The notes: generated by a model not told the origin, from the sequence alone. Counted from the stretch's first letter, positions 16,007 through 42,447 are shown. The stretch is 64,000 nucleotides of DNA from Thermodesulfobacteriota bacterium (GCA_963675595.2 CAXXLZ010000002.1:4256001-4320000); one strand, 5' to 3'. Translations and numbers: made by a program.

Positions 16007-16808
16007 AATAGGGCGGCTCGATTTCGATATCCGAGCCGTATTGTGTCACCTGCACTTCGCAATCCTGAAGCAGGAAAATCAGAGCCACAAATCGCATCGC
16101 CCGATCTCTCCGGGCATTATCGATCAGGGGGTCAATCCTGGAAAACATGATTTGTCGATACCTATGAACCGAATCCAGGATATGGCGTCTGTACCGGGAC
16201 AGCCCAGGAAGATTCCCAGTCAGGGAGAACTCCTCGCCCCAAACTCCCGCGTCAAAACCCATGAAACCCGACAATGCTTCAGTAAACCCGGGCAAACGAT
16301 CAAGCCGTGGTTCCTCCAGTAACGCCAACCCGCCCGACCGCCCTTCTCGACGGGCGAGCCTCATCATCTCTCTTCGCCTTCTTGCCTTGGCTCTCGATTC
16401 AGCCATTCGTTGCCGGAAATAAACCTTGTCGAAGACCCGTTCATCGAACAAGAACCGGGACGGCACGGTCTTCCCACAAGAAGCGCACGCATAATGAAGA
16501 CTCCGCCTGACCAGCTTCGCTCCGCAACAGCCGCTCCTTTGAAACACCACTGTGGGGTCCAGTTCATGGTCGCTCACACAGGCCGCCGAACCGGGTTCAA
16601 GCATCCGCAGGTTTTCGCCGCAAACAGGACACGGATGATTCGCCAGCATAACGTCATAGTAGTAGTCTCGGGCCGACGCCTTGTATTGAGCAACGCCGAA
16701 AACAAACTCCCCGATAATCCGGCCGAGGGCTTCCTCCGGCTCTTCCATGTCCAAAATTATCGCTGGGCGTTCGCTGTAGTGATCCGGCTCCAGGGTTTCG
16801 CATTCCAT
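15993..16808 (-). CDS. Zn-finger protein with ScpA/kleisin-like C-terminus
   Basis: CPVC, CC and CASC motifs; C-terminal RFVALIFLLQDCEVQVTQYGSDIEI resembles the ScpA C-terminal wHTH. Confidence 0.65.
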   Translation of the reverse strand: MECETLEPDHYSERPAIILDMEEPEEALGRIIGEFVFGVAQYKASARDYYYDVMLANHPCPVCGENLRMLEPGSAACVSDHELDPTVVFQRSGCCGAKLVRRSLHYACASCGKTVPSRFLFDERVFDKVYFRQRMAESRAKARRRREMMRLARREGRSGGLALLEEPRLDRLPGFTEALSGFMGFDAGVWGEEFSLTGNLPGLSRYRRHILDSVHRYRQIMFSRIDPLIDNARRDRAMRFVALIFLLQDCEVQVTQYGSDIEIEPPYYETD

Positions 16809-16913
16809 CTATCGCGGAAAGCAAAGCATTGATATAAACCTTTCGCTCCCACGCCGCAGAATTCGGAAAAGTTTATATACACCAGGGCCTTACCGAGTCC
16901 CGAGGTGATACCG

Positions 16914-17060
16914 ATGCCAAGACCCTATAAGTGCCCATATTGCGGCGCAACCCAAAGCCACTGGAAAGGATACAGGCCCCTTGCCCAGGGAAAAGTCAGA
17001 CTCCGGATGTGCACCAAGTGCCACCGGAAGTTCACGACTCGGGTTAAGATCGCCGAATAA
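16914..17060 (+). CDS. Small Zn-ribbon protein (48 aa, MPRPYKCPYCG...CTKCHRKFTT); not in the ORF track
   Basis: Two CxxC motifs; GAGGTGA SD at 16902-16908; TAA at 17058-17060. Confidence 0.75.
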   Translation: MPRPYKCPYCGATQSHWKGYRPLAQGKVRLRMCTKCHRKFTTRVKIAE

Positions 17061-17075
17061 CCACCCGACGGACCT

Positions 17076-18350
17076 TCAATGAAGACCGCCGAACGACCCG
17101 GCACCAAATCCTTCTCTTGACAAGAACCGGCTGAGGGTTTCCTTGGGAAGCGATCTCGATATTTCTCTTGTCTGGCCGTACCTGCCGCGTGATATCAGCC
17201 TGGCGTTGATCAGTCCGTAGAGGTCAAGGGAACCGATAATGTCCGAGAACCTTCGTTGCGTCAGCGGCCTGACCCGTTCCAACTCGCAGAAATTGGCGTA
17301 TCGATCATAGGCCTCGCCTGTAGTGACCCGTTTCGAAGTCTTGGCCAACAGATCGTAGCAGGAAAGAAGCGCAAGTTTCTGCTGCGGCGCGAGAGCCCGA
17401 ACCATTTCTTCGGTCTTGTCCATCTCCAATCTGTGCTCAGCCAGATCCACGATTTCTTCGGACAGCCTGCCGCCGGTTTCCTGTGCCACTTTGGCCGACT
17501 TTGATAGAAGTTCCACCGCCTTCCTCGCATCACCGGTTTCCCGCGACGCCAGGGCCGCGATCTTTCGAACAGCAGCTTCGTCCACCTTTGACTTGTCCAA
17601 CGCCTTTTCCACCCGAAGATTCAGAATTTCGATCAAATCCAAGGCGTTATAGGGTTCAAAGAGCATGTCCGTCTTCTTGAGAACGCTCAGAATACGCGGA
17701 TCCAGCATCTTGTCCCAGTTCAGTTTGTTCGTGACCATAATGAGAACCAACCGGCAGGGAATCTTTCTCGGAAGGGTCTTTCCGAGGAAGGTAATAAACT
17801 CGTCCGCATTGGGCTTGATGTTATCCGCCTCATCAATCAGGAGGCACAAGAAACCCTGAAATCGGTTCAGCTCTTCGATGATGCGTTCCTGCATCTGATC
17901 AATGGGAATGCCTTTCCTGTAAGTACGAATCGATTCATTGAGTGCTCTTGCAAGTTCATTCAACGCTCCGAAAGAGGACCTGGGCGAGGTCAAGTCCACG
18001 TATCTGTACTGAAACCCGACGGACTGCGTTCGGCAATATTCCTGGAACGTCGAAAGGACGTGAATGAGGGAAACCGTTTTCCCTGAACCCGTAGGCCCGA
18101 AGATCAGCAGAGAACTCGGATGATCGCCGTCCAGGATCGGAGTCAGATGACAGACGATGCGCTTAAGCTGCTCCTCCCTGATATTCCGATCAAAAATCTC
18201 CTTCAGAACCGAAGTTCGCTCTTCCTCTGGCAACTTCTCGTCGTCCAGATAGTTGGGGTTCAAAATAAGGCGATGATTCTTCTGTGAGTCATGCAATGTG
18301 CGGATGAATTGCAAGGAAGCTTCGGAATGATCTCCACCGGACATTTTCAA
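17076..18350 (-). CDS. cdc6: Orc1/Cdc6-family AAA+ replication initiator
   Basis: GPTGSGKT Walker A, LLIDEAD Walker B, LDPRILS, FEPYNALDLIEIL..R, GDARKAVELL, and C-terminal wHTH TGEAY..Y...C..RPLTQRRFSDII..LDLYGLI..GRYGQTR. Confidence 0.9.
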   Translation of the reverse strand: MKMSGGDHSEASLQFIRTLHDSQKNHRLILNPNYLDDEKLPEEERTSVLKEIFDRNIREEQLKRIVCHLTPILDGDHPSSLLIFGPTGSGKTVSLIHVLSTFQEYCRTQSVGFQYRYVDLTSPRSSFGALNELARALNESIRTYRKGIPIDQMQERIIEELNRFQGFLCLLIDEADNIKPNADEFITFLGKTLPRKIPCRLVLIMVTNKLNWDKMLDPRILSVLKKTDMLFEPYNALDLIEILNLRVEKALDKSKVDEAAVRKIAALASRETGDARKAVELLSKSAKVAQETGGRLSEEIVDLAEHRLEMDKTEEMVRALAPQQKLALLSCYDLLAKTSKRVTTGEAYDRYANFCELERVRPLTQRRFSDIIGSLDLYGLINARLISRGRYGQTREISRSLPKETLSRFLSREGFGAGSFGGLH

Positions 18351-18793
18351 GCGATTCTTCTACAGGACATCTATAAATAGTTTTCGGTTAAATGCATTGT
18401 CGTCACCTGACAGTGAACCGGATGTTAAGTGTGGGAAAGTTTCTCGTGGAACTTTCAGTTTCAGTTTTTAGTGATGTTTTCTTTTCCTTATTATTATTTA
18501 TTTCTATATAGAAACTATATAATATAATATAAAAGCCGCGAAAATATAGAAAAGTTTTTAAATGAAAACACTTCAGAATAGTAACAAGAAACAAAAATAA
18601 CACACCCAACAAAAGGTTTTCAAGTTTTCCACGCGACATTTACACACACTCTAAAAGCTGATTTTGAATCACTATTGAGTGACAACGTGGAGGCCATGAC
18701 GTCCCTCAAAGACCTCGATCACCGACGGTATTTCAAGAAAACCCGAAACAATCGGCCATTCGACAGTACAAGAGCCACGTTTCCACCGGAAAT
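18332..18793. other. Putative archaeal-type replication origin: AT-rich unwinding element with ORB-like boxes
   Basis: Very AT-rich tract at about 18470-18600; YTCYACnnGAMAY boxes at 18332, 18358, 18627 and 18781 (+) and at 18439-18451 (-); adjacent to cdc6. Confidence 0.6.
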
Positions 18794-18861
18794 TTACTCG
18801 GGTTCCTGAAGCCATTCGGCGTCAATCCCTCCATTCCTCTGAGGAAATTTCCCATACCAAC

Positions 18862-19365
18862 CTACATCTCGTCCCAGCCGATATACTGAGCCGGACTTTC
18901 CCCCACCCTTTCGACGATCTTGGGATATTTTTCTCCCGGAGCCGCTTTTCCGATCTCGATCACCCGGATTTCGTGCCACCAATCATCTCCGAAATCGAAC
19001 CAATAGAAGAAGTGATCGCCCTCTTTCAGGTTCAGAGAGCCGATCTTGGTTCTTGAAACGTCTCCTGCAGGCGGAGGAGTTCCCATCAGGTCTCCCTCCA
19101 TTTCGATGGGCAGCACATACCTCGCCGCCTCGGGATCCTGCGGTATTTTGGAGAGCTGAAACTCGTAGAGGTGCTCGTCTTCACGATCAAAGGCTCTGAA
19201 GATCGCCCGGTGAAGCTGCCCCAGGGTATGCTTGCCTCGAACTTGAATGACACGGAATACCGCCGGGTTCTTTGCGATGAAGGTCTTGCTCATGGGTCCG
19301 TTTGCAATGGAGACCTTTAAAGCGTACAGATTTTCCGCCCGCTTTCCTCCGGAACTCGTCGCCAT
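18862..19365 (-). CDS. Plasmid pRiA4b ORF-3 family protein
   Basis: TLGQLHRAIFRAF..EDEHLYEF and YWFDFGDDWWHEI motifs. Confidence 0.88.
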   Translation of the reverse strand: MATSSGGKRAENLYALKVSIANGPMSKTFIAKNPAVFRVIQVRGKHTLGQLHRAIFRAFDREDEHLYEFQLSKIPQDPEAARYVLPIEMEGDLMGTPPPAGDVSRTKIGSLNLKEGDHFFYWFDFGDDWWHEIRVIEIGKAAPGEKYPKIVERVGESPAQYIGWDEM

Positions 19366-19465
19366 TCACTTCCTCCTTGGTGATCCGAACATCAAAAAAC
19401 TTATAAAGGAATGAACTTACCGGTATCCAACGGAATCGGCAAGAACCGATTCGGAGGTGCACACC

Positions 19466-19909
19466 ATGGCAATGGAAACAAATTCGGCCACATCCGGCAC
19501 ACCATCAAGCGGCTGTCCCACTTGGGACGGAATGGGCATATCCGGCGATCTGCCGCCCTTTTTCAAGCCCACCGAAGACATGAAACGAAACGGCTTCGAA
19601 GTGATCTTTCTGTCCGACGGTCCCAGGAGAGAGACCGAGAACAACTTCGACAAGAACTCGAAAGACCTCTGGTTCGATATCTCCTACCAGGACAAGGAAA
19701 TGACCTGGACCATCAGCCAGATCAGCCTGCTTTCCGAACTGAAGAAGCATTCACCGCTGAAGGAGAAGATCCTCAGGATACGCCTTGTTCCGGTGACCGA
19801 AGAATTCAGGAAAAAGCGGCCGAAGTACAGAGGCAGTGAGCGATACCAGGTTGAAGAAATCCGAGAAAACCGATTCGACAAGATCGACGTGGAAGAACTG
19901 ACGGTATAG
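19466..19909 (+). CDS. Hypothetical protein, possibly OB-fold nucleic-acid binding
   Basis: GGAGGTG SD; beta-rich pattern and acidic tail. Confidence 0.65.
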   Translation: MAMETNSATSGTPSSGCPTWDGMGISGDLPPFFKPTEDMKRNGFEVIFLSDGPRRETENNFDKNSKDLWFDISYQDKEMTWTISQISLLSELKKHSPLKEKILRIRLVPVTEEFRKKRPKYRGSERYQVEEIRENRFDKIDVEELTV

Positions 19910-20048
19910 ATATTCTTTCTTCTTTTTGTTTCAGCCGATCGGAGATAAGACGTGCGAAACAGACTCAAGTAATGGACGGAAGGAAAGACGGTCTGAACCG
20001 CCGACAGAACGAAAGCAGGCTGTAATCTCAGGGGACTTTATCTGAAGC

Positions 20049-20771
20049 TCAGCCCAAGGTCGTGAGACCATGGAGGATCGCGTATTTGGTCAACTGGGAC
20101 ATTCGCCTGGTTTTCAGCTTCTTCACAATATTCCTGCGGTGATTTTCCACCGTATTCACGCTGACACAGAGTATGGCCGCCATCTCCGCACTGGTCTTCC
20201 CCTCGGTCATACCCTGGAGAACTTCCTTTTCTCTCGAGGTCAACGAAGGAAGCGACCGGTGTCCGTTTCCATTGCCTAGCGCAAGCGCTTGAAACGCCTC
20301 AGTCATCGTTTCAGCGGATTTGCGGCAAAGATACATCCGGCCTTCGAGCACCGAACGAACAGCCGCGACCAGCTCATGCAATCCGCTTTGACTGAGCACA
20401 TACCCCATGGCCCCAGCGACGAGCATTTTGAACATGGGGTCCCATTCCGAATCCGGCGCGACTCCGACCACCCGGGTTTTTCGAAACCGATGCGTGATTT
20501 GGCGCGCGGTCTCGATACCGTTCAAACCCTTCATGGAAGTGTTCACGATCACCACGTCCGAGGGCGTATTGGACAGCAGTTTAAGTGCTTCATGACCTTC
20601 CAAAGCTTCACCCGAAACCTCGAAATCAGGAACAGAGCCCATCGCGTGCCGCAATCCTTCGAGAACCATCCTGTGGTTGTCCACCAGGAATATCCGCTTT
20701 TTCTCGAGTTCTTCCCTTGCTCCGCCTTGCCCCGGTTGCTCCATGATCACCCTCCGTAACAGACGATCCAT
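20049..20771 (-). CDS. NarL/LuxR-family response regulator with atypical receiver
   Basis: REC-like N-terminus (LVDNH; VIVNTSM in place of the Asp site); LTSREKEVL..S.NTVENHRRNI LuxR HTH. Confidence 0.9.
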   Translation of the reverse strand: MDRLLRRVIMEQPGQGGAREELEKKRIFLVDNHRMVLEGLRHAMGSVPDFEVSGEALEGHEALKLLSNTPSDVVIVNTSMKGLNGIETARQITHRFRKTRVVGVAPDSEWDPMFKMLVAGAMGYVLSQSGLHELVAAVRSVLEGRMYLCRKSAETMTEAFQALALGNGNGHRSLPSLTSREKEVLQGMTEGKTSAEMAAILCVSVNTVENHRRNIVKKLKTRRMSQLTKYAILHGLTTLG

Positions 20772-20881
20772 TGTTCAATCGGAAATCCGGCAGAAGATAC
20801 CGAGACCTCCCGAAAGCAAAATGTTGGATTCAGAGAAAAAGCATCCTATAAAAAGATGAAACCGTGCGCAATCGTGATAAT

Positions 20882-20909
20882 CATGAGGTTTTCTCATGAA
20901 ATTCATGAG
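20882..20909. promoter_or_regulatory. Overlapping inverted repeats upstream of the LuxR-type regulator
   Basis: CATGAG-gtttt-CTCATG and CTCATGAA-a-TTCATGAG. Confidence 0.5.
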
Positions 20910-21417
20910 TTAAATCTGTGGAAATCGCTAGACCAGCTAATGGATTTTATGATATGGAGCAGCGAAAAAAGAGGGGTGCAGGGCGGCCATCGGGTCAACC
21001 CATTACGATCTTTAGACTTTTGGGCGGGCATAGTCTCCGGAGAATGATAACACGGCCGTTACAACGTCGGACATGGACACGACGCGTGGGAAGAACAATC
21101 AAGATCCCTGCAGCGGGGGGATGAAAGCCGAGTCAATCGCAGGGAAATAGTTGATAGCCGCTCAAACCGTCCTATGAATGCAAACACCACCTTCGCCGTG
21201 GACATCTCCGCCGAAAGTGGATTCCGGTGTCGCGAGACTCTGAGACCGGCAGGTGCCCGGGACTACCCTCCGGTGAGCCTGTGCAAGGGAAGCTTCGAGC
21301 CTGCGAACGTGATCAATGACAGACCGCCAACGATCGGTCGGAACATTGGGCGGGTTCGGCGTTTTCGGGGGCGAGATGAAAGGCCTCTTCGCCCGTCTCC
21401 CTAAAGCCCGTTCCGCC

Positions 21418-21948
21418 TCATTTTGTTCCTTTTGAAAGCCTGATCGTTCGAGTAACCGTCTCGTGGGTATCATGGGAGATTCTTCCGTCGGCAAGCATCT
21501 CGTCGGCAAGGTCTTGTGCAGCGGCAAGATCAAGACGCCCGTCTTCAAGCCGATCCCGAAGCTCGTCCTTCATTTCCATGGCCTTTCCATCACGTCGTTT
21601 CAGGATTTGATGATCCTCGGAAAGATCGATCAGGCGATCCATCGACAGGTCCACGGAATCCAGGTCTTCTTCGAACTGCTCTCTTCCCTTCTCGGAGAGA
21701 TAGCGATGAAATTTGTCTTCCCATTCCGGCTGTGAGATGAGTCCTTTGTCGTAAAGGTCATCGTACACTTCGAACTTCCGGTCGGCGCTCAGCTCCTCGG
21801 CCTCCAAAGGCTCTTCCGGCTCAGTTTCGAAGGACAACAACTTCTTCCCCGCCTCCATGAACCAATCCATGAGGCCCTCGACCTCCTGATCTTCCTCAAC
21901 AGAATCACAATCGAATTCCTCTTCCCCTCGTTCCCAATCCTTTCTCAC
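21418..21948 (-). CDS. Acidic hypothetical protein
   Basis: GTG start with GGAGG SD; D/E-rich ORF. Confidence 0.65.
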   Translation of the reverse strand: MRKDWERGEEEFDCDSVEEDQEVEGLMDWFMEAGKKLLSFETEPEEPLEAEELSADRKFEVYDDLYDKGLISQPEWEDKFHRYLSEKGREQFEEDLDSVDLSMDRLIDLSEDHQILKRRDGKAMEMKDELRDRLEDGRLDLAAAQDLADEMLADGRISHDTHETVTRTIRLSKGTK

Positions 21949-22085
21949 GGCAAACCTCCCTTTTCCAATAGAAGTGCTCGGAAAGAAATTTTCGTGTTTT
22001 GATTTTTTTCCCACACGTTTTCGATCGAGGGATCACTGGAGGAGTAAGGCAGGACGAAAACCACCCCAAACAAAAGGAGAAAGCC

Positions 22086-22277
22086 ATGAGATTTTCACGT
22101 CACCCCTTCACTGGAATGCTTCAGGTGGACTTCGGGCTTCCGCTTAGAAGAGACGATTTCAATCTGATTCACGATGTCAACGGAAAGACTGTCAGAAGGA
22201 TAGACGACTTCAACTTGGTTAAGGATACGCTCGACCGAACCGTCGAAATATGGAAGCCCAAAATGTACAATGACTGA
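22086..22277 (+). CDS. Small hypothetical protein with an internal RRxDDFNL duplication
   Basis: AAGGAG SD; 63 aa. Confidence 0.55.
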   Translation: MRFSRHPFTGMLQVDFGLPLRRDDFNLIHDVNGKTVRRIDDFNLVKDTLDRTVEIWKPKMYND

Positions 22278-22797
22278 TCCCGCTTTAAAAACTGGTCGCA
22301 GCTTCCGCCGATAATTCTATCTCGGCATGAGATAACCGCTCCCTTACCGAGCCCCTTCGGGGGCTCATCTTCATTTCCTTCCAGCCAAAATTCCCACAAG
22401 CCCTGTCGCGGAATAGCTTCGCTTTCGAGACGTCTCGTATCAGCTTCCCTGTCCTTGTTAATCGAGCCGTACCTGAAGAAACCGGTCGGTCGTCCACCGC
22501 AAAATGGTCAAGGTGTATAACGATCTCAGCGGCGTTGAAAAAAGGCGGCATTCGCGGGATATTGGGGGTGCTCAGGAAAACTTCGAACCTTCAAGCCAAC
22601 ACAAGCCTGCCGACTGCCGTCATAAAGGCCCCGCAGAGCCCCTGTTTGAGAAAGATGCCGCATAATATCGGAGGACCCAAGTTGAAGCTTTTCGTAATGG
22701 CTTACAAACCCATCGCTCTAGTCAATGACACTGATGATATACTGACAAAGTCGTATAACCTTTTTTCATCGGATAGGTAGCATTAAGGAGAATAAAA

Positions 22798-23685
22798 GTG
22801 TCCCTATTCACCATACTCAATAATATAGTCAATCACCCTTTTAACAAATACAATAAGGCTGCGGCGATAGCCATATTTGTAGGTTGGCAAATCGGTAGCA
22901 GATTAGTTCCAGGTGATGTTATTTTTGAATGGGTAAATAATTCCAAACTTGTGGCCAGAACAGGTGAAATTGTTGTTACCGGTAATATTTACTGTGGTCT
23001 TCTTGAATTTCAAGATATGGGTTTCTTGCTTCACGTTTTGAGAGAAAGAGATATTTTTGTTGATATTGGAGCTAATGTTGGAGCCTACACTATTCTGGCA
23101 AGTGCAGCTATTGGTGCAAGCTCCTATTGCTTTGAACCAGTCCCATCAACATACCGTAGGCTAATGACAAATATTAGGCTAAACGCATTAGATAAAAAAG
23201 TTATTTCATTAAATATGGCACTTGGAAATGCAAGAAAACAATTGCTATTTTCTTCAGATGAAAGTGGCACCAGCCATGTCTTGGCAGATAATGAGAAAAC
23301 TAAGAACGAAATTACTGTAAATTGTTCCACTCTTGATGAGGAGCTGAAAGGTGACCCATTTCTAATAAAGATTGATGTGGAAGGATATGAAACTCCAGTA
23401 CTGGAAGGTGCACAACATTCACTTAAGAATCCCAATCTTTGTGGAGTGATTATTGAATTGAACGATTCAGGACAAAGATACGGTTTTGATGAACAAACGA
23501 TATTGCAAATGATGTTTGATCATGGATTTAAAACCTATTCATATTGTCCTTTTGAAAGAAAGCTAAGAATTTTGGGAGGTAAGAACGAATATGAAGGGAA
23601 TACAATTTTTGTAAAGAATATCGATCGCGTCCTAAATAGAATCAATAAAGCTCCAAAGTTTGCTGTTCATGGGGTGTCAATATAG
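22798..23685 (+). CDS. FkbM-family SAM methyltransferase (AT-rich cargo)
   Basis: FVDIGANVG, FEP, IKIDVEGYE. Confidence 0.92.
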   Translation: MSLFTILNNIVNHPFNKYNKAAAIAIFVGWQIGSRLVPGDVIFEWVNNSKLVARTGEIVVTGNIYCGLLEFQDMGFLLHVLRERDIFVDIGANVGAYTILASAAIGASSYCFEPVPSTYRRLMTNIRLNALDKKVISLNMALGNARKQLLFSSDESGTSHVLADNEKTKNEITVNCSTLDEELKGDPFLIKIDVEGYETPVLEGAQHSLKNPNLCGVIIELNDSGQRYGFDEQTILQMMFDHGFKTYSYCPFERKLRILGGKNEYEGNTIFVKNIDRVLNRINKAPKFAVHGVSI

Positions 23686-23807
23686 GTGGATGCATAATCA
23701 AATTAGCTCTACCAGGACTTTAAGGCTTTACGAAGAGGGCAGTGCTCAACTTTAAATCGTGCCGCCCGGTAATTACGGGACGTCGACCATTCCTCCTCCG
23801 ACGACAA

Positions 23808-23999
23808 TTAGAATTCCCGAAGGTCTCCAACGTCGTTCGCAGGCCGGCGTTCTGCTCGATCCGGTCGGTGCAAGGAATTCCGCTCCGAACTCTGCCTGCA
23901 CCAGAACAAATGGGCGTTACCGCGCTTCCGTTCCCGCCACCAGTCCGAAAGGGTCTCATCTTCCTCAAAAGGATGCGTAATCCGAAGTTCCTGTTTCAT
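23808..23999 (-). CDS. Small hypothetical protein, possibly leaderless
   Basis: 63-aa ORF with TTTAAATA 22 nt upstream of the ATG. Confidence 0.35.
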   Translation of the reverse strand: MKQELRITHPFEEDETLSDWWRERKRGNAHLFWCRQSSERNSLHRPDRAERRPANDVGDLREF

Positions 24000-24072
24000 G
24001 GCCACCATTACGGCACGGTGGTATTTAAACCTGTCGAAAAGGGCTCACGAAGAGCCCTCTTCCAACCTACAC

Positions 24073-24945: not shown

Positions 24946-25037
24946 CGCCGTCTCCTTTCAGAGAAAAGAAAACCCCGATCTCCGACTAACGGAAACCGGG
25001 GCATGCGTTGATTTGTGGTTACAGTGTCGGCGGAAGG

Positions 25038-25238
25038 TCAGCCGCAAAGAGGCAGATACTTCTTAACCGACTCCTTCTCCTCCTGGTAATAGGCCGGTGT
25101 AAGTTCCCGCAAAGTTTCCGCTCCGAGAACCTCTTTCAGGAATTTCGATTCCTCGATACAAGCCTTGCCCTTGAACCCTCTGGTTTCGAGCTTGATCTCG
25201 CCATCCATGGATACTTCCACAATGATTTCCTTCATCAC
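25038..25238 (-). CDS. DUF2997-family protein
   Basis: DGEIKLETRGFKGKAC...LG...TPAYY. Confidence 0.85.
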   Translation of the reverse strand: MMKEIIVEVSMDGEIKLETRGFKGKACIEESKFLKEVLGAETLRELTPAYYQEEKESVKKYLPLCG

Positions 25239-25244
25239 AGCCTC

Positions 25245-31217: not shown

Positions 31218-32141
31218 CTTCTCGAGTTCATCGCACCAGATCACCGCTTTCCCGAAAGCATCAATCGTTGCAGTAGCTTGCCTCATCTTACGTTCGCTCT
31301 CTCCGACGAGAGAACCTTTCAAAGCGGACAAATCCAACCGGATGAGCGGCCATCCGAGGATCGAAGCGGCTGCTTTGCAGGAGAGCGATTTCCCGCAGCC
31401 CGGCACCCCTACCAAAAGTAACGCCTTGGGCCTCGGCAGATGCTCGTTTCCAGGCTCGAAGGCTTTCTTTCGGTTGTTGATGTACTCCTTCAGGAGATCG
31501 AGGCCTCCGACTTCCTCGATGGACACCGGCGGCCAGAACTCCATCAGTCCCGTGCGTTTGATCATCTGCTTTTTCTGCTCGGTAACGATCTCCCTGCAGA
31601 ACCGTTTTCGTTCCACCAAGGACCTGGCAAACGCGGTCTCAGCCTCGAACTCGGTAAGTCCCAGGGCGGCTTCCACAGCCTCCACGTCGGCTTCGATCCC
31701 CACGCTCTCCCCAAGCTCTTCCTGAATCCTGCGAAGCTCCTCAAGCCCCGGAAGTTCAAAGTCCAGCATGGTGAAATACTTTTCCAGCTCCGCCGGCAGG
31801 CTTACCTGAGGCCCAACCAAGACCAGACAACATCCTTGGCCTTTCCAGGAGGGCAGGCTGTTCTGGATTTCCTGGATGATATCCACGGAACCTAAAGAGT
31901 GGTGGAAGTTGTGCACGAAGAGCACGGTGTCCTCTTTTCCCGAGAGCCACTTGAGACTGCTCAATGGATCACTGGAATCGTCGTTTCGCATGCCGGACTG
32001 CAAATCCACGATGCCGCGTTGACAATCCCAGGAAAACGTCCTCCATCCTTCGGGTCGAATGGAGCCGACCGCTCGATCCGGTTCAAGGGTGACGATGTAA
32101 AGCGCCGGATACCCGGCTTTGAGATAACTCGAAATGTCCAT
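31218..32141 (-). CDS. AAA+ ATPase (Ycf46/SpoVK-like), 5' exon (308 codons)
   Basis: GVPGCGKS Walker A, IWCDELEK Walker B ending at the intron; spliced product 468 aa. Confidence 0.9.
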
Positions 32142-32269
32142 ATCGTTCTCCTTCCGTTCGGAAATAGAAAAGGCCGCTTCCGACGCACGGCCGAAAACAG
32201 CCCATAAAAAAAGCGGCCGAAGCCGCCGCCCTCCATGCTCTTTGATTCCGTTCTTCTTTTCTTCTTTGT

Positions 32270-32575
32270 TCAGAAGAGATACTCCTCCACGAGTTCGTAG
32301 GGAAATTCCTCCACTTCCGCTTCTTCGTTGAACTGCTCGAGCCCGCCTCTGCCGGCCACCGGCTCCTCCACCGGCTCCTCCACCGGAACAGCCCTGCAGA
32401 GGATCAAATGTCCACCGAACCTTTGTCGCAAAACCCCGAGTTCTGAAACCGCCTCGACCGGGTCTCGGAATCCAACCGGGTCATCCTGACCCACCACCAT
32501 GAGCCCCAGCGGATGACGGGGATTGATGATGATGTAGACCGAAGCCTCGGTCTCGTTGATTTCGACTGACCGCAT
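32270..32575 (-). CDS. Hypothetical protein
   Basis: AAGGAG SD; 101 aa. Confidence 0.65.
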   Translation of the reverse strand: MRSVEINETEASVYIIINPRHPLGLMVVGQDDPVGFRDPVEAVSELGVLRQRFGGHLILCRAVPVEEPVEEPVAGRGGLEQFNEEAEVEEFPYELVEEYLF

Positions 32576-32651
32576 AACCGTTCTCCTTTCGTAAGAGACA
32601 AAAAAACCGCCCTAAGACGGCTACTGACTCATTCCAGGACAAGAAGTTCAA

Positions 32652-32969
32652 TCAGACCCGGACACGGATTTTGTCCACGTCCTTGACCTTCTTGGGCTCC
32701 CAGTAGAGGTCGCGATCCACTTCGAATCCCGGCCTCACCTTCAAATCCCGAAGTTCACCGAAGGAGATATAGCCCCACTCAGCCATTTCCGGGTCACCCA
32801 GGATCGCGTAACCCCAGAACAGGTCCTCTCCGTCGTATTCCACGACGTACCAGTCAAAGGCTCCAAGGAAAAAATGCAGCCTGACCAGCTTCTCTTCGAT
32901 GGGCGTTCCCTCGGTCTCATAGAGCCTCGGAAGCCTGTCCAATTCCTCTTTCGTCGGTATGTTCCACAT
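32652..32969 (-). CDS. DUF2958-family protein
   Basis: LPRLYETE, WYVVEYD, EWGYISFGEL, EVDRDLYW. Confidence 0.85.
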   Translation of the reverse strand: MWNIPTKEELDRLPRLYETEGTPIEEKLVRLHFFLGAFDWYVVEYDGEDLFWGYAILGDPEMAEWGYISFGELRDLKVRPGFEVDRDLYWEPKKVKDVDKIRVRV

Positions 32970-33105
32970 GGTAAATCACCTCCTGCTTTTTCAATTCTCC
33001 GCCGCAGAATACGCAGCGGCACTGATCGAGATAGGGAAACTCTCTTCCTTCGATGAAAACTTGAAGGAAGTACTCACTGCCGCAAAACCGGCACTGAACC
33101 CGCAT
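32917..33105 (-). CDS. Small Zn-ribbon protein
   Basis: MRVQCRFCG...CVFCGG; AGGAGG SD. Confidence 0.55.
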   Translation of the reverse strand: MRVQCRFCGSEYFLQVFIEGREFPYLDQCRCVFCGGELKKQEVIYHVEHTDERGIGQASEAL

Positions 33106-33115
33106 GACGCTCCTC

Positions 33116-33397
33116 CTAAAACAAGCTCGTGTGATGTCCGCAGTAGGGGCAAAATCTGTCGCCGAAGTCGTTGTAATCGAGCCCCAAAAAGAGCCACTCG
33201 ATTCGGTAGATGTTTCCGCAACGCCCGCAAGTTGCCGGCTCGGGCCGATCCCTGCAGGGCTTCCTGAGCATCTTCTTCCGGTTGAAACAACTGCGGCCGC
33301 AGCTCTCGCAGATTTCCCATTCATCGAATACCTGAAGGATTCCGTTGCACTCCGGGCACTGCTTCTCTTCAATATTTGCGTAAAGCGCATGATCCAT
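33116..33397 (-). CDS. Multi-CxxC Zn-finger protein
   Basis: CPEC, CESC, CGRC, CPYC; AGGAGG SD. Confidence 0.7.
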   Translation of the reverse strand: MDHALYANIEEKQCPECNGILQVFDEWEICESCGRSCFNRKKMLRKPCRDRPEPATCGRCGNIYRIEWLFLGLDYNDFGDRFCPYCGHHTSLF

Positions 33398-33478
33398 TTC
33401 TTCCTCCTGAAACAAAAAAAGGCCTGGAACTCCATGGTTCCCGCCTCGTTAGGTCGACACTAATTCCCGTATGTATGA

Positions 33479-33934
33479 TCAATGAGTCTTGATGACGCCC
33501 CGCTCGGACAGACTTTCAAAGCGGCCTTCATCGCCCACAACCACATGATCCACCACCCCGACATCGAAGAGTTCGGCACAACGGGTGAGTTTCTCGGTGA
33601 TCGCGATATCTTCTGCGCTGGGTTCCGGGCATCCGCTGGGATGATTATGGATGAACGCCACTTTAGCGGAATTACTCAGGAAAACGGCCTTGAATATTTC
33701 CCGTACGGATAGAATGGTCTGGCTCAAGGTTCCCACGCTTACCAGATGGATGCAGTTCACGTAGTTCTTGACGTTCAGGCACACCAGAAGAAACATCTCC
33801 CGGTCCGCGTTTCCCATGAACTTCATGCCGAGTTCAGCCAAGTCCTGCGGTCCTCGGATTGGCTTCTTCCCATAGGGGATCGAGCCGTCCCTGACCATTT
33901 TGACGCTCACGATATCGATTCTTTCCTTCATCAT
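33479..33934 (-). CDS. radC: RadC/JAB-domain protein
   Basis: DRE.F, HNHPSG.PEPSAED, DHVVVG. Confidence 0.92.
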   Translation of the reverse strand: MMKERIDIVSVKMVRDGSIPYGKKPIRGPQDLAELGMKFMGNADREMFLLVCLNVKNYVNCIHLVSVGTLSQTILSVREIFKAVFLSNSAKVAFIHNHPSGCPEPSAEDIAITEKLTRCAELFDVGVVDHVVVGDEGRFESLSERGVIKTH

Positions 33935-34007
33935 AGAAAACCTCCCTGGAAATCCCTTGATTGGGGCTGTCCACAATGCTCGGACAGCCCGTGAGGTCGA
34001 TAATGCC

Positions 34008-34265
34008 CTAAAACGGAATATCGTCTCCGGCCTGACCCATCGACTTGATGCCGAAGTCCAGGAATGCCTGCCGAAACAATTCCGAGGCGGTCGGGAGATC
34101 ACTCGCCCGAAGATTGGGTGAGGTCTTCCAGTTGCCGTCGGCATCCTTGAACACGCGTTGCAGACTGAAGGTATGGTAGTTCCCTTTTGCGCCGTCGTTT
34201 TCCCAGACACTGACGACGACTCCGTTTGCCCGATACTTCCTCACCGGTTTGTTGCTCTCGCTCAT
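34008..34265 (-). CDS. Small PC4/SpoVG-like ssDNA-binding protein with DDIPF tail
   Basis: VSVWEN..SLQRVFKDADGNWK; C-terminal DDIPF; GGAGG SD. Confidence 0.65.
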   Translation of the reverse strand: MSESNKPVRKYRANGVVVSVWENDGAKGNYHTFSLQRVFKDADGNWKTSPNLRASDLPTASELFRQAFLDFGIKSMGQAGDDIPF

Positions 34266-34358
34266 GATCCTTCCTCCTCTTTCGTTGATATGATGCTCTA
34301 ACAGCCGCTCCATCCACAGCGGATGCACAGCGGACATCGTCCGTCGCGGTGGAGAATT

Positions 34359-34658
34359 TCACCGCAGTCCGGACATCGCTCGACCCTTCTCGGACTCGGT
34401 TTGTTCGGTTGCTTGACTTCCGAGGTAATGGATCGCCTTTTTGACGGTTTCTTGGTGATCATAGAATTCATCCAACAACTCCTTTCTCTTGGGTAATTCA
34501 TTGGTTTTGAAGATTTCCTTTGCTTCGAGATGCAGGCCGATCAGGCCCAGTAACAGCTCCGCTCCGAATTGATGGGACGGCTGGACCGACTGCGCCGCTT
34601 CCCGCCACTCGCGTCTCAGGCAAAAGAGGCCCCGACGCAACTTGGACGACGCATTCAA
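34359..34658 (-). CDS. Hypothetical protein
   Basis: GAGGAGGTGA SD before a TTG start; 99 aa. Confidence 0.55.
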   Translation of the reverse strand: MNASSKLRRGLFCLRREWREAAQSVQPSHQFGAELLLGLIGLHLEAKEIFKTNELPKRKELLDEFYDHQETVKKAIHYLGSQATEQTESEKGRAMSGLR

Positions 34659-34873
34659 GATTCACCTCCTCTCTCTGTGTGTAGTGCTCGTCGTTGTTGA
34701 AACGTGTGATTGAAGCTGTCGCTAAAACGAAGGGGATACGGGCCGTCTTCACGGACGGCGCGCTGCAAAACGGTGGGTACAGGCTTCACCCGACAAAATC
34801 GCTGTAGGTGGTCCGGGGAAACCCGCATTGGTGACACGGATCGCTAAACGCCTGGCTCTGCAAAGGTGTCCGC

Positions 34874-36910
34874 TTAACGCTCCGCTTTTTCGGTGAGTAG
34901 GATGGGGATGATCTTTTCGATGAAGTCTTTGGCGAGGTAGGCTTGAATGCCCTGAATCTTGAGGAGTGATTGAATTTTGGTGAGGGCTTCGGGGTTCGTC
35001 GCGATCATGAACTTCCGAATGGAGACGTGGTTCGAGAGGGTCTCGACGTTCTTCCTGATGTCCGATTTTCCGGTCTCGACCTGAACCGCCAAACCACCGT
35101 TGCAGTCGGCCACGAGATCCAGGTTGTCCTTTTCCAGGAACACTCGGCAGTGCCCGGCAAGCGACTGTCTGATTCTTTCGACCCAGTAGTTGTGTTCGAC
35201 ACCGCCCCGAACTCGAGAATTCTCGAGTTTCAGGCCTTCTCGGTGAAGTTGCTCTCCGGCCTGCGGCGTCAATTCAAAGAGCCGGTTTCGGTCCACAAGG
35301 ACTTCCTTGAGCAGGCCTTTCGTGAGGAGACCGTCCAGGCAGAGAGTTCCCTCCCGAGGGTTCATTCCGAGCTTCTTGTAACGTTTTTGAACTCCGTCGA
35401 AAGGATGAAGCGCGATGTCATCCAGCAGAATCCGCTCCATGGGGGAGAGTGTTTCCGAGCTTGAAAGCTCATGAAAGGAGTTTATTTCAGGAGTTAGAGC
35501 TTGGTTTGGATGTTCATTTACTGAAGAAGAGTTTATTCTAGTTTTTATGACTTTATCCCGGACCATTCCCTTGTCGATTTTGAATTCCGGAACCGATATC
35601 AGGAACGGAAACGGGACCCTTCCGGTCTTCACAATGGCCTCTCCCACCTTGAGCATGCCGTAGTAAGTTTCATTCCCGGTGGGAATGAGCTGGGAACGGC
35701 TCAAACTCGAGAAATCTTGAGACAGAGAGGTTTGAAAGCCGATCCGGGTATAGACATTCCCAAGAGCTGAGACTGAAACTTTGTGGGGATGCTGATCGAG
35801 AATCACGATGCCTTCCCCGAGCTCTCTGATCTCCCTCATCATGACGTCCGTGATGTCTTCTTCCTTGCTCGTTCGAAGAAGCAGGTGATGGGCTTCCTCA
35901 ATGACGATCATGTGCTTTAGAATCTCCCTTTCCGGCTCCTGCATCCGGTAGAAATAGATCCAAAGAAGCAGGCTTCCGATGATGAAGGTCTTGTCCGAAT
36001 CCGAAAGTCCGTCCAGCTCCAGGATCACGTTTTTCCGGAGCAGTTTTGGGATTGAAATGGGACTGAGACTGGTAATGAGACTGGGACTGAGAGCGGGATT
36101 GAGCTTGGGAATAGGACTGGGATTGGGACTGGGACTGGGACTGACGCTGGGAGATTGAAAATTCACAACCTCGTTCAGGCCCGGGAAGGTAAGACTGTTC
36201 AGCGTTCTCTTGGCCGAACTCAGCCAGAGCATCTCTCTGCCCCGGCGGTTTTGCTTGTCGATATAGCGTTTCATGTCCGCGAAGGTCGGGAGACTCATGG
36301 CGTCCATCAAGACGTCCGACGCTCCCGGACCTAACAAATATGCCTTCTCGATAATCTCCATCAGTTTCTTCGACCAGATGGGAGGCTCGACTCCGGGCGG
36401 AGGAATCTTGGGATTGAAACGGAAAGGGCTGACCTCCCTTCCCACGGTAAAGATCAGGATGTCCTCATTCCGGAAATCCGGATGGGTCAAAAGGTCCCGG
36501 TAGTTTCGTTTCCAATCGAAGATCAGAAACGGGATCTTCGCCTTGACGAATTCCCGGATAAGATTCATGCACGCGGTAGTCTTGCCGGAACCGGTCTGCC
36601 CGAAAAGACCCACATGTCGAATCAACTCCTCCTTTCTGAGACCAAAGGGAAAGAGCTTCCTGCCGCAATAGGAGACGTGTCCGAGTTGCAAATCGCCGGC
36701 CGCCTCATTCTTTCCCGGCGGCGGCAGCATAACGGCGTTTTCGAACGCCACTCCCGTATGCTGCAGGAGCATGGAATCGACCATGGATTCGATTTCGCGC
36801 TTGGCTCTCGGATTCTCCTCTATCTGATAAAGCGACCACAAAGCCCGAAGCTCTCCGGAAGAAACGAAGGGCTCGAGCCGTCTCAGCTTTTCGGCAACGG
36901 TTACGATCAT
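34874..36910 (-). CDS. HerA/VirB4/TraD-like P-loop ATPase with C-terminal wHTH and nuclease-like domain
   Basis: HVGLFGQTGSGKT, IFDWK..Y, IEEAH, LDQHP; C-terminal EH...DLV...AVQVETGKS. Confidence 0.85.
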   Translation of the reverse strand: MIVTVAEKLRRLEPFVSSGELRALWSLYQIEENPRAKREIESMVDSMLLQHTGVAFENAVMLPPPGKNEAAGDLQLGHVSYCGRKLFPFGLRKEELIRHVGLFGQTGSGKTTACMNLIREFVKAKIPFLIFDWKRNYRDLLTHPDFRNEDILIFTVGREVSPFRFNPKIPPPGVEPPIWSKKLMEIIEKAYLLGPGASDVLMDAMSLPTFADMKRYIDKQNRRGREMLWLSSAKRTLNSLTFPGLNEVVNFQSPSVSPSPSPNPSPIPKLNPALSPSLITSLSPISIPKLLRKNVILELDGLSDSDKTFIIGSLLLWIYFYRMQEPEREILKHMIVIEEAHHLLLRTSKEEDITDVMMREIRELGEGIVILDQHPHKVSVSALGNVYTRIGFQTSLSQDFSSLSRSQLIPTGNETYYGMLKVGEAIVKTGRVPFPFLISVPEFKIDKGMVRDKVIKTRINSSSVNEHPNQALTPEINSFHELSSSETLSPMERILLDDIALHPFDGVQKRYKKLGMNPREGTLCLDGLLTKGLLKEVLVDRNRLFELTPQAGEQLHREGLKLENSRVRGGVEHNYWVERIRQSLAGHCRVFLEKDNLDLVADCNGGLAVQVETGKSDIRKNVETLSNHVSIRKFMIATNPEALTKIQSLLKIQGIQAYLAKDFIEKIIPILLTEKAER
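36058..36152 (-). repeat. Hexamer-derived Pro/Ser low-complexity insert in the ATPase
   Basis: (GGGACT/GAGACT/GGGATT)n encoding SPSVSPSPSPNPSPIPKLNPALSPSLITSLSP. Confidence 0.8.
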
Positions 36911-37677
36911 TGGAATTCCCTCTCACACCACCCCCCGCATAGACAGGGATAGTCCTCTTCACGCTCGGACAGGGTCAGCTCGTGCATTCGGCGGATTTCT
37001 TCCGCAGCCCAATCCGCGAGTTCTTGGGTAGGCTTGAAAATTTTGGGATTGTCTTTGGAGGGTGGGAATTTCAGGAAATGAACTGAGACTCTATCGGGAA
37101 GCTTTCCGTTCACTTCCCGCTCGAGGAGGGCGTAGATCGCAAGCTGGAGTTTGATGTCGGGTGTAATCTCCTGGTATTTCGAAGTCTTATAATCCCTGAT
37201 CTCGACGAATTCTCGAGAATAACGGGCATCCAAGATGCCTTGGGCACCATGTATTTGACTCACAAGCCGTATTTCCGGCTCAGGCGGGCTTCTTCCGCTG
37301 CTCATTTCGCGGATGAACTGGTGAAGCCAGTTCAACGCCATCTTCCTGGCCTCGACGAGTTGGCCTTCGGCCTCGTCCCGACCGCCGGAGAGCGTCCGAA
37401 TCTCGAGAATTCTCGAGTTCCACAGGAAATCCACCCTGTCCAGAATCCGCTTTCGGCTTTCCGCATAGGGCGCTTCGAGAATCTCGGGAGTATATTCCTG
37501 AACAAAGGCTTCCGCAGCCTGGTGAACCACCTGCCCCACGATGAAGCACATCTTGGGTTTGGTTTTCAGTTTCCTGACGTATCTAAGATAGAACTTTCTC
37601 GGGCATCCCCATCGGAACCGCGCATCCTTTTTGTAGGAGAGAATGGCCGACGGGCTCAGGATTCGTTTGAAGGTCAT
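36907..37677 (-). CDS. PD-(D/E)XK nuclease (Cas4/AddB-like)
   Basis: LSPSAI..Y, CPRKFYLRY, G..VH, GILD, IRDYKTSK, QLAIYA, C-terminal C.WC. Confidence 0.88.
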   Translation of the reverse strand: MTFKRILSPSAILSYKKDARFRWGCPRKFYLRYVRKLKTKPKMCFIVGQVVHQAAEAFVQEYTPEILEAPYAESRKRILDRVDFLWNSRILEIRTLSGGRDEAEGQLVEARKMALNWLHQFIREMSSGRSPPEPEIRLVSQIHGAQGILDARYSREFVEIRDYKTSKYQEITPDIKLQLAIYALLEREVNGKLPDRVSVHFLKFPPSKDNPKIFKPTQELADWAAEEIRRMHELTLSEREEDYPCLCGGWCEREFQ

Positions 37678-37835
37678 TTTGATCGGTCGTAACGGCTCCG
37701 CACCTGCATTTCCCTCACAAAGTACACGATCACTTTTTCCAGTTGATGTTTTTCCATGGCGAGCGCGAAGGCTCCCGGCACTTCGTAGAGCTTTTCCACG
37801 TCCGTCATGGTGACGTCCTTATATTGGTATTTCAT
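37674..37835 (-). CDS. Small hypothetical protein
   Basis: 53 aa; fills the gap between coupled genes. Confidence 0.55.
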   Translation of the reverse strand: MKYQYKDVTMTDVEKLYEVPGAFALAMEKHQLEKVIVYFVREMQVRSRYDRSK

Positions 37836-37837
37836 TC

Positions 37838-38392
37838 TCAGGTTTTTCCTCCCAGCAATTTGGCCTTGTCCTCTATCGACCTCCGGTACTCCACGGTATC
37901 CCTGAGTTCCTTGCCCAAAAACAGAATGTCCCTGAAATAGGCGGCAAGTTCCATTCTCCGGTCCCGCTCGAGATCGATCTTCCGCGTCTCCAGTCCGATC
38001 CAGTCTCGGTCCCTTCGATAGACCTTGTAGCCCATCTCGAAAATGAGGTTCTGGCAGGTGCAAAGATCCCGCTCGATGCCGTAGAGGTTCTCCTCCTTGA
38101 TCAGCCTCCGCTTATCGATGGCTTCGATCACGGCTTCGATCCGATCTTCCGTCCTTTGAATCTTTGCTCCCAACATCCCTTCCAGGCTCAGAAACCCCAC
38201 ATTTTTTTCGGAGGGCACACCTTCATAAACAGAAGGGGACGCCAAGTAGGACGCTCCGCTTCCGTAAGGGGAGACCAAGTAGGACGCTCCGCTTCCGTAA
38301 GGGGAGACCAAGTAGGACGCTCCGCTTCCGTAATTCGATGTGGGTCGTATGGGAGAGTACGAACCAAGCCGCGAAAAATAATCATCACTCAT
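37838..38392 (-). CDS. Coiled-coil hypothetical protein with N-terminal YGSGASYLVSP repeats
   Basis: 184 aa; first gene of the operon. Confidence 0.75.
   Translation of the reverse strand: MSDDYFSRLGSYSPIRPTSNYGSGASYLVSPYGSGASYLVSPYGSGASYLASPSVYEGVPSEKNVGFLSLEGMLGAKIQRTEDRIEAVIEAIDKRRLIKEENLYGIERDLCTCQNLIFEMGYKVYRRDRDWIGLETRKIDLERDRRMELAAYFRDILFLGKELRDTVEYRRSIEDKAKLLGGKT
38242..38333. repeat. 33-bp tandem repeat, about 2.8 copies
   Basis: CCAAGTAGGACGCTCCGCTTCCGTAAGGGGAGA units. Confidence 0.95.
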
Positions 38393-38881
38393 AAGTAGTT
38401 GAAATCAGCTTCTTATATAAAAAGCTTTCCCTTTTTCCCGCTCAAATGAACGACCCGAAGCCAAACAGCTACACACGAATCCCCTTCAGAGGCCACTTAC
38501 TGGTCAACGGCGGACGAAATTGGAAGGCGTCCCCGCCGTCCCCAACCCCGAACGAAAGGAAAAGCTTTATGGCAGGATTTGAAGACTTTCCGTCGGGAGT
38601 GGTTTTGGTAAGAAACGGCAGGCCTGAAGAGGATTCTTTTCGGCGAAGATTTCGTTTTTAGAGTCCATGAACGACCAATGATTCCTTCGCGTGTTACTTC
38701 CTCTCTCGTAAGGCCTATGAAGCCTCTTTCCCCCCTATGTCGACTGTATCGGCAACCCTATCCCGGTCAATCGGTAAAAACGGCCCGGTTTCCCGAAACC
38801 CGTTTCCGGTGGTTGAATGCATCCCCATTCTAATCCCTGATGATTCTGCGAAGAATTCCTTCTGGGTTCCAGATTAGAGTT

Positions 38882-38897
38882 CGGCACAGTTGTTGCT
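38882..38897 (+). promoter_or_regulatory. Sigma-54 (-24/-12) promoter of the PEP-CTERM gene
   Basis: CGGCACAGTTGTTGCT fits GG-N10-GC. Confidence 0.7.
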
Positions 38898-39029
38898 TGT
38901 ATTGTATGACAAAATGATTAAAATGAACTAAATGACTAGCAAGCGAAATTCGAGATATCGGATAAGATTCTTAGGCACCACGTGTGAATGATCGCGGCGA
39001 CTCGATCGCCTGTAGCGGGAGGTGTAGAT

Positions 39030-39806: not shown

Positions 39807-39842
39807 CCGGTGAACTTTAATAAGTGAAATTCAGAGAGAGAT

Positions 39843-39879
39843 AGCGGGGTCTCGATGTACGGGTCCCCGCTTTTCTTTT
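39843..39879 (+). terminator. Intrinsic terminator
   Basis: AGCGGGG...CCCCGCT followed by a T-tract. Confidence 0.75.
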
Positions 39880-42426: not shown

Positions 42427-42447
42427 GATTATGGAGGCAGATCGGCA

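Follow-up and report, generated by a model that had tools for sequence, protein, structure and literature searches.

Bacterial and archaeal transcription initiation are usually held to be mutually unreadable, which is one presumed reason for the poor movement of genes between the two domains. Within bacteria, the late promoters of phage T4 carry an A/T octamer at -10 that is read by gp55 and have no -35 element, and leaderless mRNAs of the type found in Actinobacteria and Deinococcus have a -10 box ~7 nucleotides (nt) before the ATG. T4 middle promoters, as described in PMC2988021, need an excellent sigma-70 -10 element, and in place of the -35 element they have a MotA box centred at -30, which a phage-encoded activator reads through sigma appropriation by AsiA/MotA. 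Archaeal promoters, according to PMC5316973, have an 8-bp TATA box centred ~27 nt and a B recognition element (BRE) ~33 nt upstream of the start, a pyrimidine at -1 and, near -10, an A/T-rich proximal promoter element (PPE); ATG is the start codon of 94.9% of their leaderless mRNAs, and the median leader is 12 nt. For haloarchaea, PMC4983044 gives CGAAA as the BRE, TTWT as the TATA consensus and WW at -10. Here, we describe a recurring BRE-TATA-like motif in an integrated element of ~27 kb, which lies in a 64,000-nt stretch of the genome of a Thermodesulfobacteriota bacterium (GCA_963675595.2 CAXXLZ010000002.1:4256001-4320000; the whole stretch is called the window below). The element spans 15208..42612, has genes on both strands, among them one for an Orc1/Cdc6-like initiator, and carries six copies of the motif.

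A recurring motif at a fixed distance from gene starts

Six BRE-TATA-like motifs had been listed for the window in the initial annotation, and each is found at the position given there. The scores quoted below were obtained with a position weight matrix (PWM) built from ten sites, which scores the 15-mer only. On the minus strand, CGAAAGG+TTTATATC (16845..16831; PWM 20.8) lies 22 nt before ATG 16808 of p271, CGACAGG+TTTAAATA (24036..24022; PWM 20.2) lies 22 nt before ATG 23999 of p63, an open reading frame (ORF) of 63-66 aa with an alternative in-frame ATG at 24008, and GGAAAGC+TTTTTATATA (38430..38414; PWM 17.3) precedes p184, with 21 nt from TTTATATA to ATG 38392. The fourth minus-strand motif, CGAAAAC+TATTTATA (18386..18372; PWM 19.6), stands before cdc6, 21 nt from TTG 18350 and 27 nt from the in-frame ATG 18344, of which the second is the more probable start, given that the box AAATGTCCGGTGGA persists irrespective of the reading frame. 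These four starts had been described as lacking an obvious Shine-Dalgarno (SD) sequence, and no GGAG, GAGG or AGGA can indeed be read upstream of them. On the plus strand, GGAAAAG+TTTATATA (16865-16879; PWM 21.4) is followed after 22 nt by GAGGTGA (16902-16908) and then by ATG 16914 of zn51, an element gene for a Zn-ribbon protein of 48-51 aa; it diverges from the p271 motif at 16831-16845 (minus strand), with 19 nt between the two. The weaker plus-strand site, CAAAAAA+CTTATAAA (19393-19407; PWM 14.4), is 45 nt from GGAGGTG (19453-19459), which precedes ATG 19466. Its octamer is near-palindromic (CTTATAAA / TTTATAAG) and lies between two divergent genes; read on the minus strand, the same site is 21 nt from AAGGAGG, which is followed by ATG 19365 of the PRiA4_ORF3 gene.

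The motif is enriched in the elements and restricted to them. In the window, CGAAANNTTTAWATA with at most one mismatch has four matches against 0.08 ± 0.31 in 100 dinucleotide shuffles, none of which (0/100) reaches four; when two mismatches are allowed, there are six matches against 2.15 ± 1.54, a count reached by 3/100 shuffles. Both strands of the 6.79-Mb genome together contain only 93 occurrences of TTTAWATA. At the PWM threshold of 13 used for the genome scan, 35 matches fall in the four genomic copies of the element (~108 kb), against 196 in the remaining 6.69 Mb. All eight matches of the window element (8/8) lie in its non-coding 20% (by the ORF list), at gene 5' ends or in an origin-like region, the non-coding DNA of the element being more A/T-rich, which favours PWM matches there. 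After the 35 element matches, the starts of ORFs of at least 80 aa peak at 21-23 nt (11 start-codon counts in the bin), and no ORF-start peak is seen at this distance after host matches. Once a second repeated unit, described further below, has also been removed, 179 non-redundant host matches are left, and in only four of them is an ORF of at least 60 aa opened by an ATG at offsets 22-24. An ATG at offset 23 follows 10/179 weak host matches; eight of these ten open ORFs of only 1-25 aa, and this host peak is therefore taken as chance. The strongest host matches inspected sit inside long ORFs. Equal frequency of the motif, at this spacing, upstream of host genes had been named in the initial annotation as a refutation; the motif is not common there at this distance. 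Across 60 related genomes, the motif counts follow those of a reversed-pattern control, and the three element-carrying genomes stand modestly above it (15 v 9, 12 v 6 and 11 v 7), which is weak evidence.

Conservation of the motif and its spacing was followed in a family set of 64 sequences (546 kb), consisting of the four own copies, 15 genome loci and 45 metagenome loci. At a PWM threshold of 16, this set yields 79 sites, 45 of which are non-redundant (30 downstream bases differing at more than nine positions). Five of the 45 have an ATG at offset 22 from the 15-mer and six at offset 23, against a background of ~0.64 per offset at 0-21, and SD-like four-letter words peak at offsets 22-25 (3, 5, 6 and 5). 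At 20-25, an ATG is present in 15 of the 45 and, in a further seven, an SD with a start codon after it. The distance from motif to ATG of p271 is 22 nt in three own copies, 23 in L015, L045 and L053, 24 in L047 and 26 in L024, and the spacer sequence is unrelated between the own copies and L015/L045/L053. For p63, it is 22 nt in 4/4 copies, with a spacer that differs in two. In the own copies, the ATG of p184 follows after 21, 21 and 22 nt, copy 4 having CGAAAGC+TTTAAATA with the distance of 22 nt; in L019 and L023, 22 nt separate the motif from an SD. Ten of 11 non-redundant zn51 orthologues share the arrangement CGAAA-NN-octamer-(22-24 nt)-GAGGTGA-(5-6 nt)-ATG, in L012/L013 with the variant CAGGTGA and 0 nt to the ATG; the eleventh is leaderless at 23 nt. 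Upstream of cdc6, the TATA-like block is kept in 10/10 aligned loci. Motif and spacing are thus retained in relatives whose Cdc6 proteins are 59-68% identical, and the spacer between motif and start is scrambled.

When the 22 sites are anchored on their ATG or SD start, the octamer occupies -31..-24 and the A-rich box -37..-33, with A at -36..-33 in 14, 19, 15 and 14 of the 22. A pyrimidine precedes the anchor at -1 in 17/22, and the purine at +1 is fixed by the anchoring. These sites have no sigma-70 -10 element, since just 3/22 have A at -11 and just 4/22 have T at -7. A simple sigma-70 scan of 15000-25100 yields 10 sites (7.3 ± 2.5 in shuffles), and the motif regions contain none of the 10; by both the scan and the anchored counts, the motifs are not sigma-70 promoters of the -35/-10 type. 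The anchored base counts and the reading of the sites also dispose of other bacterial sigma factors: there is no GG at -24 or GC at -12 as for sigma-54, and the spacings or boxes of extracytoplasmic function sigma factors, sigma-28 and sigma-32 do not match. Only one site fits the consensus of integration host factor.

That the spacing resembles that of archaeal leaderless promoters had been stated in the initial annotation on a handful of sites; the claim holds and is strengthened by the 22 anchored sites when these are set against the layouts in PMC5316973 and PMC4983044. In the element, the A-rich box, the octamer and a weak T/W signal follow one another like the BRE, TATA box and PPE of archaeal promoters and, counted from the ATG or SD, lie at matching distances; the ATG would then be at +1, or the leader 10-14 nt long. 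Only 2 nt separate CGAAA or GGAAA from the octamer downstream, like the consensus in PMC4983044. Unlike archaeal promoters, they reside in a bacterial host with no TBP or TFIIB match, and their +1 is set by the ATG/SD anchoring.

A bacterial host and candidate ways of reading the motif

The host is an ordinary bacterium, because its 16S rRNA is bacterial, nine matches to the sigma-70 family are present, its rRNA operon has TTGACA promoters and neither TBP nor TFIIB is found. Its genome (G000; 6.79 Mb, three contigs, 56% G+C) contains a single small-subunit rRNA gene, located on the contig of the window, which scores 1630 bits with the bacterial model against 1077 with the archaeal one. A six-frame search finds the nine matches to sigma-70 region 2, and TTGACA-16-TATAGT and TTGACA-17-TAGTAT lie upstream of the rRNA operon. 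The six-frame search of this 98%-complete genome gives no match to TBP (PF00352) or TFIIB (PF00382), both of which are matched in four archaeal control genomes. Judged by the machinery needed in the cell (TBP, TFB and archaeal RNA polymerase), the motifs are not archaeal TBP/TFB-dependent promoters, and without TBP and TFB in the host, any promoters formed by them must be read by the bacterial polymerase.

The reading that we tentatively prefer, at a little under an even chance, is that the motifs are functional promoters of the element with an archaeal layout, from which transcription would start ~23 bp downstream by host polymerase guided by a factor. Such a promoter would consist of the A-rich box (CGAAA), 2 nt, the 8-bp A/T box (TTTAWATA) and a weak T/W signal ~11-13 nt further on. 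Were transcription to start ~23 bp beyond the A/T box, an mRNA would open either with the ATG itself, and so be leaderless, or with the SD box, and so have a leader of 10-14 nt. By this scheme, p271, p63, p184 and probably cdc6 would have leaderless mRNAs, and zn51 and the PRiA4 gene SD-first mRNAs. Because the polymerase is bacterial, a sequence-specific DNA-binding protein is presumed to bind at about -37..-24 and to position it, in a role comparable to that of TBP/TFB, or to that of MotA at T4 middle promoters. With their own element-specific box near -30 (here -37..-24), the latter are a precedent in bacteria; unlike them, the element sites lack a -10 element and have a different box sequence, and thus are not of the T4 middle type, and no relatives of MotA or AsiA are found among the proteins scanned with PHROGs.

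The factor might be encoded by the element, a plausible option that the initial annotation had raised in the form of an element-encoded activator, or by the host. Proteins that accompany cdc6 in relatives are zn51, p271, p123, p140 and p147, and the element candidates for the factor are p140, p271, zn51 and Cdc6 itself. In the structural model of p140 (pLDDT 75, pTM 0.66), a winged helix is combined with a long C-terminal helix. Matches in the PDB are weak, none of them at E<=0.001; the best (E 4e-3, TM <=0.43) are regulators of the Lrs14/MarR/PadR type, and TFE-alpha and TFIIE appear among the lower-ranked ones. In p271, Zn-ribbon motifs are combined with a C-terminal winged helix, and its leads in the Atlas are FdhE-like (0.95) and ScpA/kleisin-like (0.75-0.78); the model is poor overall (pLDDT 64, pTM 0.34), showing Zn-ribbon strands and a confident C-terminal helix-helix-hairpin. 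The p184 protein is made up of low-complexity sequence and a coiled coil, and a 390-aa ORF found outside the element combines membrane segments with a coiled coil. As readers of the motif, p140, p271, zn51, p123, p147 and Cdc6 are candidates only.

Several points weigh against the element-promoter reading. No TBP, TFIIB, sigma or gp55-like protein is found among the 20 unknown element proteins with Pfam, NCBIfam and PHROGs, and we know of no bacterial machinery that reads such a promoter. The transcript start is deduced from the spacing alone, and the gene starts to which the spacing is measured were taken from ORF reading, not from a gene finder. The PWM seeds were chosen partly for spacing, yet many of the sites found later were not seeds. 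Some of the fixed spacing could come from shared descent among orthologous regions, and 23/45 of the non-redundant sites belong to neither the ATG nor the SD class. There are also exceptions to the spacing: the p271 leader of one clade is ~50 nt, L012 has 36 nt, and the p147 gene of the window has 45 nt to its SD. Finally, the PPE-like signal is weak: 13/22 anchored sites have T at -11, and 15/22 have W at -10.

Among the rival explanations, it is unlikely that the octamer is a -10-type element without a -35, read by sigma-70 or by a small sigma-like protein according to the logic of T4 late promoters. Transcription would then start 6-8 nt after the octamer, leaving leaders of ~15 nt without an SD or of ~27-30 nt with one. 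The octamer does resemble TATAAATA, the octamer of T4 late promoters, to which the zn51 site of L012 corresponds exactly, it is the easiest melting point in a genome of 56% G+C, and a leader of 26-30 nt is normal for SD-led bacterial genes. Like T4 late promoters, the element sites combine the lack of a -35 with an 8-bp A/T box, the two boxes being almost identical in sequence; unlike in T4, where the start is expected 6-8 nt downstream, the spacing is 22-24 nt and a CGAAA lies upstream. The best hexamers within the octamers are without T at the last or A at the second position, the sigma-70 scan is silent at the motif sites, and no phage sigma match was obtained for the 20 element proteins with PHROGs. 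A -10-type element would leave unexplained both the ATG or SD at 22-24 nt behind scrambled spacers and the CGAAA 2 nt upstream, and an SD-less leader of 15 nt would be odd given the strong AGGAGG boxes of other element genes. The leaderless mRNAs of Actinobacteria and Deinococcus share with the element a start codon at the (proposed) transcript 5' end and a preference for ATG, but the element sites show no TAnnnT at -12..-7. We consider it improbable, and more so than a -10-type element, that the motif is an operator or other protein-binding site, bound by Cdc6, by a winged-helix regulator such as p140 or by an A/T-preferring nucleoid protein, that regulates promoters located elsewhere. The CGAAA..TTT part faintly recalls the ORB-like box (after the origin recognition box, ORB) CGGAAATTTA, the motif of cdc6 is located among such boxes, and the family encodes the conserved winged-helix p140, with its weak PDB matches, and p271, with its confident C-terminal helix-helix-hairpin. 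An operator, however, does not account for a motif that is asymmetric, present in one copy per gene and always pointing to the gene; a fixed distance to the functional start of the mRNA is what is expected of a core promoter element, and the sigma-70 scan detects no other promoter in these short intergenic regions.

The two remaining explanations are both highly improbable. In one, the promoters serve in archaea, either because the element shuttles to archaeal neighbours or because an archaeal ancestor left them behind to decay. In sequence and geometry the motifs correspond to archaeal promoters, Orc1/Cdc6 with ORB-like boxes makes an archaeal-type replication module, and the 15 records listed for Cdc6 from a plasmid library are archaeal, the commonest genera being haloarchaeal. 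On the other hand, none of the 15 genome loci is archaeal, the named close relatives belong to Thermodesulfobacteriota or a delta proteobacterium, the archaeal homologues among those listed are less than 30% identical, the G+C content of cdc6 follows that of its locus, and four diverged copies reside in one bacterial chromosome set. Since motif and spacing are conserved and the spacers are not, the comparison argues against decay. The suggestion of the initial annotation that the motifs are relics of an archaeal origin is accordingly disfavoured by their retention at 59-68% Cdc6 identity despite the scrambled spacers, and its suggestion that they are active only in an archaeal host finds no support in 0/15 archaeal genome loci and archaeal plasmid Cdc6 proteins that, where listed, are below 30% identity. 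In the other, which is slightly less credible still, the motif would act in RNA as an A/U-rich translational enhancer, an S1-type site ~22 nt upstream of SD-less starts. A/U-rich leaders aid SD-less initiation in bacteria, and the four minus-strand genes are without an SD; in the SD-led genes, however, the constant distance ends at the 5' end of the SD and not at the ATG. With only 19 nt between the divergent motifs (16831-16879), an enhancer would also place the promoters inside each other's leader, where none is seen, and it gives no role to the conserved C/G of CGAAA or to the pyrimidine at -1.

Taken one step further, the element-promoter reading would imply a widespread family of bacterial mobile elements with archaeal/eukaryotic-like promoters and leaderless mRNAs, transcribed by bacterial RNA polymerase together with an undescribed TBP/TFB-like factor, a possibility that we hold a shade more cautiously than promoter function itself. 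An archaeal-looking promoter layout is maintained by selection in elements living in bacteria, and if this reading were true, it would amount to a new way of directing bacterial transcription; starts ~23 bp after the TATA-like box would mean that the bacterial polymerase is positioned in a manner not described before. It could also be what survives from the adaptation of an archaeal-type replicon (Orc1/Cdc6 plus ORB) to bacteria. The short motif, the small genes and the carrier isolate would then make a tractable system for finding the factor.

The element, its origin-like region and its relatives

Genes for PAS/GAF histidine kinases lie on either side of the element, bordering it from 15208 to ~42612. 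Four copies are present in the genome at 90-97% identity (BLASTN), the other three being located at C1:1418348-1444496, C2:903702-927179 and, inverted, C2:1658055-1627149 (C1 and C2 denote contigs). The gene for the Orc1/Cdc6-like AAA+ initiator occupies 17076..18350 on the minus strand and is matched by Pfam Cdc6_C (1.6e-24), Cdc6_lid and AAA_22. Further element genes encode PRiA4_ORF3, a LuxR-type response regulator, an FkbM methyltransferase, DUF3150, DUF2958, RadC, a HerA/DUF87-like ATPase and a PD-(D/E)XK nuclease, besides many ORFs without a family match. In this gene set, p184 is the first gene of a long minus-strand array (p184 / PD-(D/E)XK / HerA-like ... AAA), and p271, which has no SD, is the first of the p271-p123-p140 array (15216-16808, minus strand). 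The latter array accompanies cdc6 in relatives and could be a partition/condensin-like module or a regulatory one. Next to the p63 motif, a hairpin with a T-run that resembles a terminator (GAGGGCTC ttcg TGAGCCCTTTT) at 24040-24068 on the minus strand ends the DUF3150 gene and abuts CGACAGG+TTTAAATA, so that 24022-24068 looks like a terminator-promoter junction.

Directly upstream of cdc6, the region 18351..18560 (minus strand) resembles an origin: an AT-rich stretch, the ORB-like box GTTCCACGAGAAACTTTCCCAC and the inverted mini-boxes ATGTCCTGTAGAAG and AAATGTCCGGTGGAG surround the promoter-like motif of cdc6. This architecture is conserved upstream of cdc6 in 10 aligned loci (L011-L023), and the ORB-like box of the relatives, with its C-string, reads GTTCCAYNGGAAAnTTACCCACCCACC. 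In the G014 loci (L004/L007, equivalent to L012/L013), AAATGTCCGGTGGA is a 5-codon mini-ORF with its own SD that overlaps the cdc6 start. A Cdc6 with AAA+, lid and winged-helix domains thus stands beside inverted ORB-like repeats and an AT-rich element, as expected of an Orc1/Cdc6-ORB module, and 18351-18560 may have a replication function. Like the origins in PMC3528665, cdc6 has an AT-rich stretch and inverted ORB-like boxes bearing a C/G-string directly upstream; unlike those described there, the present ones are in bacterial chromosomes, and the GGAAA strand carries the C-rich form of the string.

At E<=1e-10, 784 relatives of the Cdc6 protein are found; the best 120 of these are 61-68% identical, save a few that are near-identical (88-98%). 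Those with names include 'orc1/cdc6 family [delta proteobacterium NaphS2]' and 'Cdc6/Cdc18 [Thermodesulfobacteriota]'. Scanning species-representative genomes with a Cdc6 alignment gave the 15 genome loci, and a scan with the single Cdc6 protein gave none; 13 of the loci are from Desulfobacterota/deltaproteobacteria, one from a Bacteroidales metagenome-assembled genome and one from an Anaerolineae fragment, and none is archaeal, although no search was aimed at archaeal genomes. Related elements occur in two genomes of the host's class, those of a Desulfarculia bacterium and Desulfocarbo indianensis. Metagenome contigs contributed the 45 additional loci, and the Cdc6 alignment detected no relative in viral contigs. 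In the plasmid library, 427 records match Cdc6, all at less than 60% identity; the 15 that were listed are archaeal at 26-30% identity, and the ten commonest genera are haloarchaeal. The G+C content of cdc6 ranges from 40 to 56% and tracks that of its own locus. The elements point to a large and apparently undescribed family of Orc1/Cdc6-based replicons in sulfate-reducing and related bacteria. A literature search confined to an open-access library gave no account of archaeal-type promoters or of Orc1/Cdc6 elements in Desulfobacterota.

The second repeated unit consists of the 390-aa membrane/coiled-coil ORF, which has no family, and a KaiC-like ATPase, beside an integrase disrupted by an insertion sequence (IS). 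Its four copies lie at C2:4232700-4236461 (L026 6700-10461), C1:1403600, C2:879304 and C2:1700538, and the unit carries an identical CCGAAAACTATTTATA 23-24 nt before the ATG of its ORF. In 4/4 cases, 14-42 kb separate it from a Cdc6 element, with side and orientation unchanged, and the two may form one larger island with variable histidine-kinase cargo. The flanks of the element (e.g., 13344-15116 and 43418-45919) are paralogues of PAS/GAF hybrid histidine kinases on one or both sides, with ~63-69% nucleotide identity to each other, and they are clearest for the window copy and the C1 copy among the four. Either the element targets histidine-kinase genes or the kinases are cargo.

Other mobile DNA is present in and around the element. 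A group II intron with a 620-aa RT/maturase/HNH ORF occurs twice in tandem (26092-28656 and 28653-31217; 99.96% identical). The other three copies of the element apparently have one intron, because each aligns with both window introns over one overlapping stretch. In the 46-53 kb part of the window, outside the element, there are many small ORFs without a family match, and an extra one-mismatch motif, CGTAATATTTATATA, lies at 53145-53159 (plus strand), 38 nt before the GTG of a 106-aa ORF. On the other side of the element, an IS110-family insertion (11803-13368; transposase 11860-13017) is located between a PAS gene ending at 11806 and a HisKA/HATPase/receiver ORF from 13344, an arrangement that looks like a split sensor kinase; the same IS is found in at least four other places in the genome.

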